A stretch of DNA of 34,137 bases from a virus (lineage: Duplodnaviria > Caudoviricetes): IMG/VR virus record IMGVR_UViG_3300043579_000150, positions 1-34,137 of that record; one strand, given 5' to 3'. The first letter of the stretch is position 1. The number at the start of each line of letters is the position of its first letter. The translations under genes and the position numbers were made by a program. The notes beneath the pieces are model-generated. The model searched no databases, was not told where the DNA came from, and was given only the letters and a program-made list of their open reading frames with translations. Positions 3,713 through 20,846 of the stretch are shown in pieces.

Positions 3713-4590
3713 TATTCTTGTAGTTTCTTTCTACGCTCTTCAACTAGAGGTAAAGTATATTGTGCATCAATCAAATAAATATTCTTGTTTCTTTCATTGC
3801 GTTCTCTTTCCCAATCAAAGTAATAAGTCGGAGTCCAATAAACAAACTCTTCATCGGGAATAACTTTGTCTAGTATATCTTGATTGATTACATTAGCAAA
3901 GGCATTAGAAGAAAGTCCAGTCAGAATTTGATTTGCTGATGTGTTACCTGTGATATGCTGGATTTTCACAACGGAAGAGTTAGCTATGATCACTTCCCCA
4001 TTGCCAACTGTCGCTGTGCTCATACTGTTTTTGACTAGAACACGCTCGCCATTAGAAAACCCTGTATTTGCATTCAGAGTGATTTCCAAACGAACAAGTT
4101 GATTGGTATTGATAACCCAATCTTCTTGCCTACGCCTATAATGAAGTATCTTTGTGCCTTTTCCGAAATAGGCTGAATAGTATTTCTTCAGGGCTTCCGG
4201 GAGTATATCTTGATAATGAGAAACTGAGATTTCTTTGGTATCATCTGGCCAGTTTATAGCATAGTGTCGGACTTTCTGTTGTGCTTCTTCAATAGATCCA
4301 TATTTCTTCTTGATAAACTCAATGAAATCTTCATCAGAGAGATACCAGTCATAGTAAGGATCAAGGATACCATTAGCTAGAAAGATTAACCATTCCAGAT
4401 AAGAATCATTATAGTAGCCATAAGAGACTACATCAGGACGCATGTTATGTTGAATCTCATAAGGATAGAAAAGAACAGGACGCCCGGCTAGATTAGGATT
4501 GAGCGCAATATTCTTAGCAATGTTCACACACTTTAGTTGATCATCACCATATTCAATTACAGGAAAGCGAGAAAAATAAAATTCAGGCAT
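3712..4590 (-). CDS. gp53: Baseplate wedge subunit gp53
   Basis: YFSRFP N-terminus; RPDVVSYGYYNDSYLEWLIFLANGILDPYYDW...KKYGS; ERERNERNKNIYLI C-terminus. Confidence 0.88.
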   Translation of the reverse strand: MPEFYFSRFPVIEYGDDQLKCVNIAKNIALNPNLAGRPVLFYPYEIQHNMRPDVVSYGYYNDSYLEWLIFLANGILDPYYDWYLSDEDFIEFIKKKYGSIEEAQQKVRHYAINWPDDTKEISVSHYQDILPEALKKYYSAYFGKGTKILHYRRRQEDWVINTNQLVRLEITLNANTGFSNGERVLVKNSMSTATVGNGEVIIANSSVVKIQHITGNTSANQILTGLSSNAFANVINQDILDKVIPDEEFVYWTPTYYFDWERERNERNKNIYLIDAQYTLPLVEERRKKLQE

Positions 4591-18146: not shown

Positions 18147-18503
18147 ATGAATAAGTCTGAACAAGAGAGGTTTCTGAAAGCAGCCAAGGGCGCCGATTTG
18201 CCCGCGCTGGAAAACTTGATTACCCAGCTGACTGGTATGGCCGAGGAAATCAAGGTTGAGAAAAGGGCTGGCCTGAAGGAGCGAATCGAAGAGATGTTGG
18301 CTGGCGCTGGAACCAACATTGCCGAGGTCTACGGCAAGATCAAACAGCCCTCAACTCGCGCGGCCAAATACCGTGATCCAAACAATCCGACCAATACCTG
18401 GACTGGCCAAGGTCGGATGCCGGGCTGGATGACGGAAAAGAAGAAGGCCGGTGTAAATCCCGAGGATTTCAGGATCAAGGAGGAAGAGCCAGCGAAGACC
18501 TAA
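18147..18503 (+). CDS. hns: H-NS family nucleoid-associated protein (short HvrA/BpH3 type)
   Basis: AKYRDPNNPTNTWTGQGRMPGW is the H-NS DNA-binding motif TWTGxGRxP; coiled-coil N-terminus; GGAG SD. Confidence 0.92.
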   Translation: MNKSEQERFLKAAKGADLPALENLITQLTGMAEEIKVEKRAGLKERIEEMLAGAGTNIAEVYGKIKQPSTRAAKYRDPNNPTNTWTGQGRMPGWMTEKKKAGVNPEDFRIKEEEPAKT

Positions 18504-18616: not shown

Positions 18617-19489
18617 TTATTGTTTATTTACTAGGCTTTGAAATAGACTTACAGTTTTCTTGTGCTCTTCATCTGTTTCATCCACATCAAATGGAGGAGG
18701 CGAATTATCATCAACATCAGCTGCAACTGATGCTACGCGCTTTCCAGTTGTTCCAAGAACCCGATCTAGTCGAGCCTTGAGTTCATCATATGTTTTGAAG
18801 TTTTTTCCAGAAACAAATTCTTGTAGAGAATGCTGTTGATTCCAAATTTTTTCTAGCTCTTCATCATTGTCTGTAAGAGGAGAAGGTGGTTTCACAAACT
18901 CTGATTGATCATAGTTTCTATATCCTTCAACAATGCAAATTTTCAGCCGCAAAGGAACACCAGCCCAAAAATCAAAAGGATTGATTGGCGGTTCATCAGG
19001 AAACTGAGGGATCATAAGGTTGTTTAGTTTATCAAAAATTTTCTTGCCATAACGGAACAAAAAAACTTTGCCCTCATTTTCTGGATGAGCAATATCCTTC
19101 ATAACTAGAATATTAGAAATGTAAGTAAGTTTACGTTTTTGTTTCCGAGCAACTTCTTTATCAGAATCCTGCCCGCTATTCCAAAGAATTGAATTATACT
19201 CACTAACAGGATCAGGTTTGCCTAGAGTTGTTAGGGAGTTTTCAATATACCAGCTGCCAGTTTTGCCCTGAAAAGAATGGAACCAAACACGCACAAAAGG
19301 AACTTCTTCGCCTCTTGGTGCTGGTAGGAAACGAATTACTGCATAACCGTTTCCAGCTTTATCAACGTCAGGATACCAAATCCTGTCATCTTCAACGAAT
19401 TTTGGAGCGGTTTGTTTTTGAAGTTCGGTAGTCAGAGATTCTAAGGATTTAGCTCTGCTATTTTTTAGGTCTAAAAATGAAAGTACCAT
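18617..19489 (-). CDS. gp32: Single-stranded DNA-binding protein gp32
   Basis: DKAGNGYAVIRFLPAP, WYIENSLTTLG, YGKKIFDK and GYRNYDQSEF motifs; lacks the T4 Zn cysteines. Confidence 0.95.
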   Translation of the reverse strand: MVLSFLDLKNSRAKSLESLTTELQKQTAPKFVEDDRIWYPDVDKAGNGYAVIRFLPAPRGEEVPFVRVWFHSFQGKTGSWYIENSLTTLGKPDPVSEYNSILWNSGQDSDKEVARKQKRKLTYISNILVMKDIAHPENEGKVFLFRYGKKIFDKLNNLMIPQFPDEPPINPFDFWAGVPLRLKICIVEGYRNYDQSEFVKPPSPLTDNDEELEKIWNQQHSLQEFVSGKNFKTYDELKARLDRVLGTTGKRVASVAADVDDNSPPPFDVDETDEEHKKTVSLFQSLVNKQ

Positions 19490-19490
19490 A

Positions 19491-19694
19491 TTATTCTATT
19501 TTTTCTCCTGTATTATTATTTGTTGTATTGTCTATATTTTTGATTTGTTTTAGATAGTATAAACTTTGAGATATTTGATATATGTATTTCAAAGTTTCAA
19601 TGTCACTCGTATTATAAGTGCCATATACTTGTGGCAAAGTGCATAATAAACTTTCTAGTCTTTGTATCAATGTATCAAGTTGATATCCTAACAT
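19491..19694 (-). CDS. Hypothetical AT-rich ORF upstream of gp32
   Basis: GGAG SD before the ATG; very AT-rich, may double as the gp32 leader. Confidence 0.45.
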   Translation of the reverse strand: MLGYQLDTLIQRLESLLCTLPQVYGTYNTSDIETLKYIYQISQSLYYLKQIKNIDNTTNNNTGEKIE

Positions 19695-19714: not shown

Positions 19715-19803
19715 TGGCGGCAAGGGCAGTTCGCGAAGCTGCATCTCCCAGCTAAAACCTTTCGGCTCTGATCTGCTAGGGCTCTACTTTGAGCTACCTC
19801 ACC
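19715..19803 (-). ncRNA. tRNA-like RNA lacking a canonical anticodon loop
   Basis: GGTGAGG/CCTTGCC acceptor stem + G + CCA; GCTC/GAGC D stem; CTAGC/GCTGG stem enclosing AGAGCC-GAAA-GGTTTT; GCAG/CTGC T arm with TTCG. Confidence 0.75.
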
Positions 19804-19811
19804 ATACGTTG

Positions 19812-19818
19812 TATTTAG
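19812..19818 (-). promoter_or_regulatory. Late promoter candidate (CTAAATA) for the tRNA-like RNA
   Basis: Motif ends 8 nt upstream of the predicted 5' G. Confidence 0.6.
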
Positions 19819-19822
19819 GCGC

Positions 19823-20173
19823 TCATAATAGCTGGACGCCATATATTCCAGAAATTGCTTCATCAACATTACGAAAGAATGAAATGCCACGAATTTGTGT
19901 TATGTAAGACACTCTTTTATCATCTAAAAATGTAGCTGTGCGGCTATTCTCCACATCTATTAGAATGTTTCCTGTGATGCTATCAAATCCTGCTTTTCTT
20001 GCGAGTCCATTCATATAATCACTATCATAGTTTTGTTGCCAATTCCGAAGCTGCAAAATACCATAGATTGCACGAAAAGCCTCAGATGCTTCATGGACAA
20101 TTGAAGCTCCCCGAAAAGCAAACCCTGAAAGAGGAATAGCTAGCACCGATAGAACGAATTTGCGACGGTTCAT
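19823..20173 (-). CDS. Hypothetical protein with twin-arginine-like signal (start MNRRKF)
   Basis: MNRRKFVLSVLAIPLSGFAF; GGAG SD; TAATG coupling. Confidence 0.55.
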   Translation of the reverse strand: MNRRKFVLSVLAIPLSGFAFRGASIVHEASEAFRAIYGILQLRNWQQNYDSDYMNGLARKAGFDSITGNILIDVENSRTATFLDDKRVSYITQIRGISFFRNVDEAISGIYGVQLL

Positions 20174-20307
20174 TAGTCTTCTCCCTGACATGGTTTGCTT
20201 AGTTCTTTTTGAGTCGGTTTATTCCTTATCGCTATAAGTCCACATTTGATGCAATAACGCCAGTTTAGAAACATACCACTTAGCTTGTGCGGCTTTCCTT
20301 TTGCCAT
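20173..20307 (-). CDS. 44-aa putative Zn-binding peptide (not in ORF track)
   Basis: MAKGKPHKLSGMFLNWRYCIKCGLIAIRNKPTQKELSKPCQGED; H...CxxC...C; fills the gap after gp59. Confidence 0.55.
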   Translation of the reverse strand: MAKGKPHKLSGMFLNWRYCIKCGLIAIRNKPTQKELSKPCQGED

Positions 20308-20846
20308 CTGGTAATGATCATGCCTCTGAGTTTTTGCCAGTCATATTTCAGAAATGGTGCATACTTCTGGAGGCGTGTCATGTAGACCGGATTGCTAAGA
20401 TTTCCAGTATAATACTCCCAAAGCTGGAGTTTGTCAATCAGAATTGTTATCGTCTCAGCAGAAATTTCGTTTCGGGTATAAAGTTCTTGAATATAAGGCA
20501 GCTTCCCGACTTTTGGCTGGAAGTTGGAATCAAAATCGTCCTGAAGCTTACCTAAGTCTGTTTTGAATAGATAAGCTAGAGATTGTTGTCGTCGCTCCCA
20601 TTCCAGGTAACGATCCTGAGTCATATCTTTTATCCAGCGATCTTTATCAATTAGATTCGCCAAAAAGAGATTATGCGGAGATTTGTGTTTGGTTAGTTTC
20701 TGAAAGGCGTATTTGTCATTGCGCCTTTCAAATGATGCTGGAGATGCGTTCTTTAGTTTTCCATGATATTTGAAATAATCATAGGTCGGATGATTGAAGT
20801 GTTGTTTCAGGGCGAGATAATCAACATATATCTCAAAGGAGTTCAT
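20280..20846 (-). CDS. gp59: Helicase loader gp59
   Basis: YLALKQHFN...YDYFKYHGK...FERRNDKYAFQKL...QSLAYLFKTD...ISAET...KYAPFL. Confidence 0.9.
   Translation of the reverse strand: MNSFEIYVDYLALKQHFNHPTYDYFKYHGKLKNASPASFERRNDKYAFQKLTKHKSPHNLFLANLIDKDRWIKDMTQDRYLEWERRQQSLAYLFKTDLGKLQDDFDSNFQPKVGKLPYIQELYTRNEISAETITILIDKLQLWEYYTGNLSNPVYMTRLQKYAPFLKYDWQKLRGMIITRWQKESRTS

Follow-up and report, generated by a model that had tools for sequence, protein, structure and literature searches.

The window analysed here is the whole 34,137-nt virus record IMGVR_UViG_3300043579_000150, which is ~20% complete and comes from a T4-like phage, as its baseplate and tail genes, gp33, gp59 and gp32 indicate. Between gp59 and gp32, on the minus strand, lies a tRNA-shaped RNA gene of 89 nt. 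The genes and features of the locus are as follows, with the basis of each RNA feature in brackets.

18147..18503, plus strand: H-NS C-terminal-domain gene, facing gp32 and kept in the orthologous locus
18617..19489, minus strand: gp32 single-strand DNA binding protein gene, downstream of the RNA unit on the same strand
19490..19539, minus strand: A-rich unstructured stretch preceding the gp32 start, 64% A (67% in the orthologue), resembling a gene 32 operator
19491..19694, minus strand: 67-codon AT-rich ORF between the RNA and gp32, missing from the orthologous locus
19715..19803, minus strand: tRNA-shaped RNA gene, 89 nt, ending in G73-CCA (sequence, fold and orthologue)
19715..19725, minus strand: 3' strand of the acceptor, discriminator G73 and encoded CCA (sequence and orthologue)
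19726..19742, minus strand: T arm of four pairs with a C53.A61 mismatch and the loop UUCGCGA with C58 (sequence and orthologue)
19747..19780, minus strand: anticodon-position arm with a 6-bp stem, a 5x1 internal loop and the inserted hairpin (fold and orthologue)
19754..19769, minus strand: inserted 6-bp hairpin, GAAA cap at 19760-19763 (fold and orthologue)
19781..19794, minus strand: D arm with a 4-bp stem and the 6-nt loop AAAGUA lacking GG (fold and orthologue)
19797..19803, minus strand: 5' strand of the acceptor stem (fold and orthologue)
19812..19818, minus strand: CTAAATA late-promoter-like box, 8 nt upstream of the unit (7 nt in the orthologue; predicted leader of 2-3 nt)
19823..20191, minus strand: 122-aa ORF with no assigned function, just upstream of the RNA and 54% identical in the orthologous locus
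20280..20846, minus strand: gp59 helicase loader gene, the upstream synteny marker

No homologue of the 67-aa ORF was found, and the 122-aa ORF had no tblastn match among 50,697 cultured phage records. Because, in addition, the listed cultured gp32 proteins are at most 52-61% identical (the closest among 30 matches listed), this phage appears to have no close cultured relative. In both phages compared below, the ORF upstream of the RNA (122 or 119 aa) has a hydrophobic stretch near its start, together with what we take to be a twin-arginine-like motif at its N-terminus. The H-NS C-terminal-domain gene facing gp32 possibly encodes a silencing or counter-silencing factor.

Fold and promoter box of the RNA unit

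The sequence of this 89-nt minus-strand stretch as written in the first-pass annotation holds letter for letter. The cloverleaf with a 6-bp GAAA-capped hairpin at the anticodon position is both the minimum-energy and the centroid fold, and the two loop anomalies noted before are real: the D loop has a single G, and position 58 of the T loop is C instead of A. Beyond that earlier description, positions 53 and 61 form a C.A mismatch that leaves a T stem of four pairs, and C26 can pair with G44, which gives a 6-bp stem and a 4-nt variable loop. The stretch enclosed at the anticodon position is 22-24 nt long and GAAA-capped, and holds no 7-nt anticodon loop with U33 and a purine at 37. The G+C content of the unit is 56%, as against 40% and 25% in its two flanks. 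Its folding energy does not exceed chance (z -1.27; 22 of 200 shuffles fold equally well), so that the case against a chance fold rests on the orthologue described below.

The CTAAATA motif was confirmed at its reported distance of 8 nt. With 7 copies against 6.1 expected, the motif is no more frequent in the window than chance predicts. Its placement does depart from chance: of the 14 sites that 56,364 nt of this phage contain, 4 fall within 80 nt upstream of the 7 RNA genes, both mimic units included (P ~6e-7, for an 80-nt span picked post hoc); at the two real tRNAs with a box, it is 27 and ~70 nt away. Two sites face one another in the gap between divergent structural genes. CTAAATA has been proposed as the late promoter of the T4-like phage Aeh1, with a start at -12 (PMC1524935), and a start of that type therefore predicts, for both orthologues, RNA synthesis beginning 2-3 nt ahead of G1. 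The number of sigma-70 boxes in this region does not clearly exceed chance (11 against 6.9 expected, sd 2.6).

An orthologue with compensatory changes

Of 39 loci matched by a pattern that combined D arm and T loop, three (L473, L488 and L503, mutually identical over 194 aligned nt) carry the orthologous unit in a related phage. Two more loci, L107 and L139, are identical to the window unit (L107 over 3,016 nt), and the exact unit is known from only two independent genotypes. The order gp59, 119-aa ORF (122 aa in the window), CTAAATA box, RNA, gp32 and H-NS-like gene is common to both phages, whose gp32 proteins are ~90% identical. Three flanking proteins are 91%, 76% and 54% identical and their fourfold sites 58%, 42% and 58%. 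Against these 42-58%, the RNA is identical at 72 of 89 positions (81%). In the orthologue, no ORF of at least 45 aa spans the unit.

Aligned by structure, the two sequences differ at 19 of 89 columns, 14 of them paired columns, and yet all 27 pairs are intact. Six double and two single compensatory changes are spread over all five helices; the acceptor stem holds three of the double changes and one of the single ones, and the D stem changes from C13-G22 to U13-A22. One double change sits within the inserted hairpin, so that the covariation which had been named in advance as what would set this hairpin apart from a decaying tRNA was found, in a comparison of two sequences. When an equal number of random substitutions was introduced, a fraction of 4e-5 of 200,000 trials left no pair broken and none attained six double changes. 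Structures slid along the alignment were 28-54% paired with zero double changes. A shuffle control of the structural alignment gave 6/500, a test limited by there being two sequences only.

The inserted hairpin grows from 6 pairs with a GAAA cap in the window to 9 pairs with GGAA in the orthologue, the GNRA cap being retained. Also kept are the D loop, T loop, variable loop, G73-CCA and CTAAATA box, as well as, at the sequence level, four of the five internal-loop bases and the weak A-U/G.U helix. The 53-61 mismatch is retained in changed form (C.A to A.C). On the other hand, the tandem U3-G70/G4-U69 wobbles, which had been pointed out as a feature of the acceptor, are not supported as meaningful, the orthologue having C3-G70 and U4.G69.

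These comparisons bear on the reading of the unit as a decaying tRNA pseudogene or a chance fold. It is consistent with the unremarkable folding z-score of -1.27 and with the D-stem and acceptor-stem mismatches of a second unit in the same phage (see below). However, the 27 of 27 pairs kept, the six double changes, one of them inside the insert, the identity of the RNA above that of neutral sites and the retained promoter box largely refute it, and we regard it as highly improbable. The unit is very probably a real, selected RNA and, judged by the two genotypes, is not a decaying tRNA.

The insert could instead be a short intron after position 32 of a tRNA-Lys(UUU) gene, masking the anticodon until it is removed. 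If nucleotide 26 is left out of the frame, a single deletion in either orthologue produces a 7-nt loop that has Y32, U33, a UUU triplet and A37; the 3' block is invariant, and two other loci, L509 and L467, use that frame. Introns reported without explanation in tRNA genes of Lak phages provide a loose precedent (PMC6784885). Against this, the standard frame yields no such product (0/8 for each sequence), we estimate the chance of such a match at ~1 in 16 per try, and position 38 would pair with 32. Furthermore, the inserts, of 17 and 23 nt, differ between the orthologues and are far too short for a self-splicing intron. The product would also still lack G18G19 and A58, and would carry G73 where A73 is listed for lysine (PMC9976931). 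We therefore consider an intron quite improbable.

Relation to known RNA families

As had been anticipated, annotation tools pass over the unit. In the window, ARAGORN called only tRNA-Met and tRNA-Asn, and Rfam gave no match at the unit with E up to 5; neither an Rfam match (E up to 1) nor an ARAGORN call was obtained for the orthologue. BLAST of the unit against the 50,697 cultured phage records returned one 21-nt chance match. A literature search, mostly without subscription papers and bioRxiv supplements, found no description of this RNA.

With the tRNAs of RF00005 the unit shares a 7-bp acceptor, U8, A14, A21, a GCUC/GAGC D stem, T-arm spacing and an NCCA end. The nearest canonical bodies are three tRNA-Thr(UGU) genes whose D loop is short (L094, L098 and L225), and the same AAAGUA D loop occurs in L094/L110 and L098; L225 also has a 53-61 mismatch. 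Unlike canonical tRNAs, the unit has no anticodon loop, has C58 rather than A58 and a 53-61 mismatch, and contains the inserted GNRA hairpin. The normal tRNA elbow is built from contacts of G18/G19 with 55/56, U54.A58 and G53-C61 (PMC10424219, PMC7609411), a set from which the unit departs with one G in the D loop, C53.A61 and C58.

The tRNA-like domain of tmRNA has G3.U70 and A73, lacks a D stem and is joined to a tag reading frame. As a candidate it was rejected: the unit has U3.G70 (C3-G70 in the orthologue), G73 and a 4-bp D stem, and neither ARAGORN nor RF00023 called a tmRNA.

Kinship to the species 1/2 RNAs of T4, which the first-pass annotation mentions, is not supported. T4 rnaC and rnaD (NC_000866) are small stable RNAs of a T4-type phage with no annotated function and lie beside tRNA genes, and rnaC terminates in a T arm. 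They are 139 and 119 nt long with no D arm at tRNA spacing, however, rnaC keeps the normal UUCGAAU loop, and in that T4 stretch the models of the unit and of its clan match real tRNAs only. YrlA resembles the unit in being tRNA-derived and non-decoding with D and T arms kept, and also occurs in phages (PMC4201824). As that source describes it, its acceptor-like stem is an internal stem-loop placed between T arm and D arm and it lies beside Ro60, whereas the unit has plain tRNA order, a free CCA end and no match to RF02553. Ro60 was not among the 55 ORFs of the window (PHROGs; record ~20% complete) or the Pfam-scanned neighbours of related units.

Irregular polycistronic tRNAs and allo-tRNAs form odd arrays linked to toxin-antitoxin loci, and some are charged yet unused in translation (Mukai et al., PMC5389517). 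They differ in having 8/4 or 9/3 acceptor branches, and in the rows examined they keep anticodon loops and a GGUUCGA T loop, as against the 7-bp acceptor, four T pairs plus mismatch and C58 found here. The inserts in Lak megaphage tRNA genes, for which no route of removal is known, are as a rule the same from one genome to another (PMC6784885); the insert of the unit differs in both length and sequence yet retains its fold, and sits in a body that is itself non-canonical. On these sequence comparisons, the unit is best described as a variant of an already-known kind of non-decoding tRNA mimic, and what is distinctive is a non-standard elbow that it shares with other phage units.

The identity of its acceptor end bears on the earlier idea of an aminoacyl carrier, which in this form would be an RNA for non-ribosomal amino-acid transfer. 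The most plausible enzyme to charge it would be SerRS, because this synthetase does not read the anticodon. The CCA is encoded, and the window unit has G73, C72, G2-C71, R4-Y69, C11-G24 and G30-C40 of the bacterial serine set (PMC9976931). The main serine element in that set, a long variable arm, is missing (the variable loop is 4-5 nt), and R4-Y69 is lost in the orthologue with U4.G69. The alanine set (G3.U70, A73) is absent too, and acceptor ends vary over the clan. Thus the idea is weakened, no anticodon-independent identity set among those listed being present (PMC9976931), and such a carrier is improbable.

A wider clan of phage tRNA-like units

Further units were recruited with D-arm patterns, later ones also requiring the T loop and all requiring a D loop without GG. 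A descriptor scan of all loci gave 182 distinct cloverleaves, of which 16 have C58, every one without GG in the D loop; C58 occurs in 0 of 140 cloverleaves with GG. The clan alignment consists of 18 units chosen for C58, nine of which (the window, L086, L130, four of L147, L195 and L387) came from steps that did not require C58. Omitted were the L113/L150 units (GNRA-capped arms and a GG-less D loop, but A58), L465/L471 (which have a normal loop of isoleucine type and a longer T stem), L147e and two units of L474. The alignment is 92% paired with 12 covarying pairs. Its pairing and shared features are partly built in, because the patterns needed a GG-less D loop and later C58, and the descriptor needed paired stems. 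Not built in are the 53-61 mismatch in 14 of the 18, the split of position 56 into C (nine) and A (nine), and the variation of the acceptor sequence and discriminator (A73 in 10, G73 in 7, U73 in 1); only 9 of the 18 encode CCA. Across 19 distinct clan units the anticodon-position arm encloses 6-45 nt and is GNRA-capped by folding in five. The 7-nt U33/R37 loop is absent from 17 of these, and the other two have one in a frame lacking nucleotide 26.

With the clan model, a held-out unit at L551 scored 58 bits, the highest value outside the training set across 89 sources, where the runner-up reached 53. The orthologue obtained 63 bits from a model that had not included it. Three other clan units pass the RF00005 gathering cut-off weakly (32-38 bits). 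In all 18 units a D-loop GU is able to pair with T-loop R57-C58, a pairing that we put forward as a hypothesis, since those columns barely vary. Several clan loops look like threonine anticodons, and the same D loop is also found in ordinary tRNA-Thr(UGU) genes, so that descent of the clan from tRNA-Thr is a fair inference.

Wider searches added little. The L086 and L510 units gave nothing useful against the cultured phage records, and among the matches listed 80 gp32 loci contained no unit resembling this one, with ordinary tRNA-level scores of up to 40.5 bits against 74.2. Two loose patterns returned mostly chance matches, with one clan unit (L356) in 120 loci and none in 76, and a pattern of T arm plus CCA returned 10 loci, four being the two known genotypes and six chance. 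In one genome for each of 185,579 prokaryote species, a strict pattern matched nothing and a wider one once, among arrayed tRNA genes of a Flavobacteriales bin, on a contig of 158 kb; absence from cells is not demonstrated by this, because the patterns are narrow. Low-depth contigs of related phages from two sequencing runs do not extend over the unit and are uninformative about it.

Tandem arrays at L147:612-1268 (minus strand, five units, none detected by ARAGORN) and L474:1303-1757 (minus strand, four units) combine an altered T arm with differing anticodon-position arms. An unannotated clan unit is present in the cultured Xanthomonas phage Elanor (ON189045.1, ~4171-4244; L541:1495-1568, plus strand). 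It lies in a gap of 876 nt that follows the terminase gene; the same gap contains a tRNA, likewise unannotated, and another tRNA-like unit ending in CCA. The clan unit was not found in 7 of 7 loci of related phages and is therefore dispensable there.

Related forms were seen outside the alignment. At L113:1494-1675 and L150:994-1251 (plus strand), tandem tRNA-like units with GNRA-capped anticodon-position arms and A58 directly follow a PTH2 peptidyl-tRNA hydrolase gene (Pfam match in L113); PTH2 is near L195 too. L082:1494-1560 (plus strand) has a tRNA-Thr(UGU) body whose anticodon arm is shrunk to a short GAAA hairpin, and L094:1450-1523 (minus strand) is an intact, otherwise near-identical gene in related contigs; from their sequences, the pair appears to be an anticodon-arm replacement caught in one step. 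In L099, L104 and L106 (~1494-1622), dense tRNA arrays include tRNA-like units of 129 nt that end in CCA and contain large inserts. At L088:1132-1589 and L100:1428-1893 lie GOLLD RNAs, where the Rfam match takes in a stretch that looks like a degenerate tRNA and has the same D loop without GG.

The window phage itself has a second clan unit, at L387:8057-8128 (plus strand) of a longer contig identical to the window where compared. It follows a ribonucleotide reductase gene and is preceded at a distance of 9 nt by CTAAATA; its loop is 6 nt long, C53 faces C61 in a mismatch, and neither ARAGORN nor Rfam detects it. The same contig holds at L387:8874-8950 (plus strand) a tRNA with an 8-nt anticodon loop, unassigned by ARAGORN, that gives a weak tRNA-Sec match.

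The position of this second unit matters for the possibility that the RNA upstream of gp32 works in cis, as the 5' end of a late gp32 transcript serving as stabiliser, processing site or nucleation structure for self-repression in place of the T4 pseudoknot. The T4 gene 32 operator is described as a ~28-nt pseudoknot, the nucleation site, adjoining an unstructured A/U stretch (PMC535899). Here too a folded element precedes an A-rich unstructured stretch and the gp32 start, on the gp32 strand and with no terminator-like site between, and in the orthologue the CCA is directly followed by a 49-nt, 67% A, unfolded stretch and the start of gp32, which is the T4 layout as described there. The element is nevertheless a whole cloverleaf with CCA rather than a pseudoknot, and in the window a 67-codon ORF intervenes and the CCA is 225 nt from the gp32 start. 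Moreover, the second unit follows a different gene, and other clan units lie in tRNA arrays. Finally, 30 of 60 gp32 loci scanned (60 of 80 were scanned) carry a tRNA or tmRNA nearby, 28 of them upstream, and this is therefore a usual site for stable-RNA genes. We consider a role in cis unlikely. What lies upstream of gp32 in many T4-like phages (loci L002-L081) is a permuted tmRNA, tRNA-Arg(UCU), or a 92-94-nt class-II-shaped tRNA with a UAU anticodon.

Clan neighbourhoods share no protein family (76 ORFs from 14 loci plus the window, Pfam); PTH2 adjoins two loci only, on contigs that are fragments. Taken with the variation of acceptor and discriminator, this fits a shape-based role in trans. 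It also bears on whether the unit serves a dedicated phage protein as scaffold or ligand, in a small ribonucleoprotein comparable to that of Y RNA with Ro60, the rebuilt elbow and the 5x1 internal loop being what the protein would read. The sequence conservation of the T loop, D loop, internal loop (4 of 5 bases) and weak A-U/G.U helix in the orthologue argues for such a partner, as does the recurrence of the alternative elbow in unrelated phages. The lack of a common neighbour family argues against it, with a distant partner conceivable given the fragmentary contigs, and we hold this explanation to be doubtful.

Proposed function of the RNA

The earlier proposal of a conserved tRNA-shaped unit with a late-type promoter box and no anticodon loop is supported by the orthologue and by the placement of the box. 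Bacterial identity sets with G73, as listed in PMC9976931, require the anticodon or, for serine, a long variable arm. With no anticodon loop, an altered elbow and these sets incomplete, the RNA should neither decode nor be charged, and it is very probably non-decoding. The explanation that we favour, at a probability of about 40%, is a decoy working in trans on tRNA-attacking or tRNA-sensing proteins of the host.

According to this decoy explanation, an 89-nt CCA-ended RNA would be transcribed from its own late promoter. Its predicted start 2-3 nt before G1 means that little or no 5' processing would be needed, and its 3' end would be cut from a longer transcript continuing into gp32. The absence of an anticodon and of identity elements would exclude it from synthetases and the ribosome, and it would likely stay uncharged. 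The changed elbow would adopt a fixed alternative fold, possibly with D-loop GU against T-loop R57-C58, and would keep the RNA out of host tRNA pathways. The RNA would then bind host proteins that cleave, modify or sense tRNA, presenting no anticodon loop for cutting. The least certain part is whether its partner belongs to the defence or surveillance proteins of the host.

It is established that some defences cleave or modify tRNA and that phages counter them with tRNAs (PMC13728456, PMC12445682). As a decoy for such defences, a late RNA made in abundance, with the top half of a tRNA, a free CCA and no cuttable loop, would be well suited, and free variation of acceptor and arm fits recognition by shape. 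A pure decoy, however, would seem better served by a normal elbow, and the conserved alternative elbow may point to a dedicated partner. In addition, in the one tested case, the tRNA-Thr of an OLD-resistant phage protected by replacing the host tRNA and not by competing for the nuclease (PMC12445682), which speaks against a decoy. The encoding of CCA by only half of the 18 aligned units and the dispensability of the Elanor unit count against it as well. A broader conjecture, which we advance only tentatively and think more likely wrong than right, is that the clan comprises phage tRNA derivatives, probably from tRNA-Thr(UGU), with a second type of elbow in which D-loop GU:R57-C58 replaces the G18/G19 and U54.A58 contacts and with a freely exchangeable arm, forming an uncleavable RNA inhibitor of tRNA-targeting anti-phage defences.

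In summary, the unit is overlooked by standard annotation, and the altered elbow that it shares with the clan is a structural surprise, because the bases concerned are nearly universal in tRNA. The 89-nt unit, its covarying orthologue and the clan member in a cultured phage make the role of phage tRNA-like stable RNAs directly testable. A known phage counter to tRNA-cutting defence is substitution of the lost tRNA (PMC12445682); a non-decoding tRNA-shaped RNA under purifying selection, transcribed from a late promoter of its own, would represent another kind of counter-measure or else serve some other function entirely.
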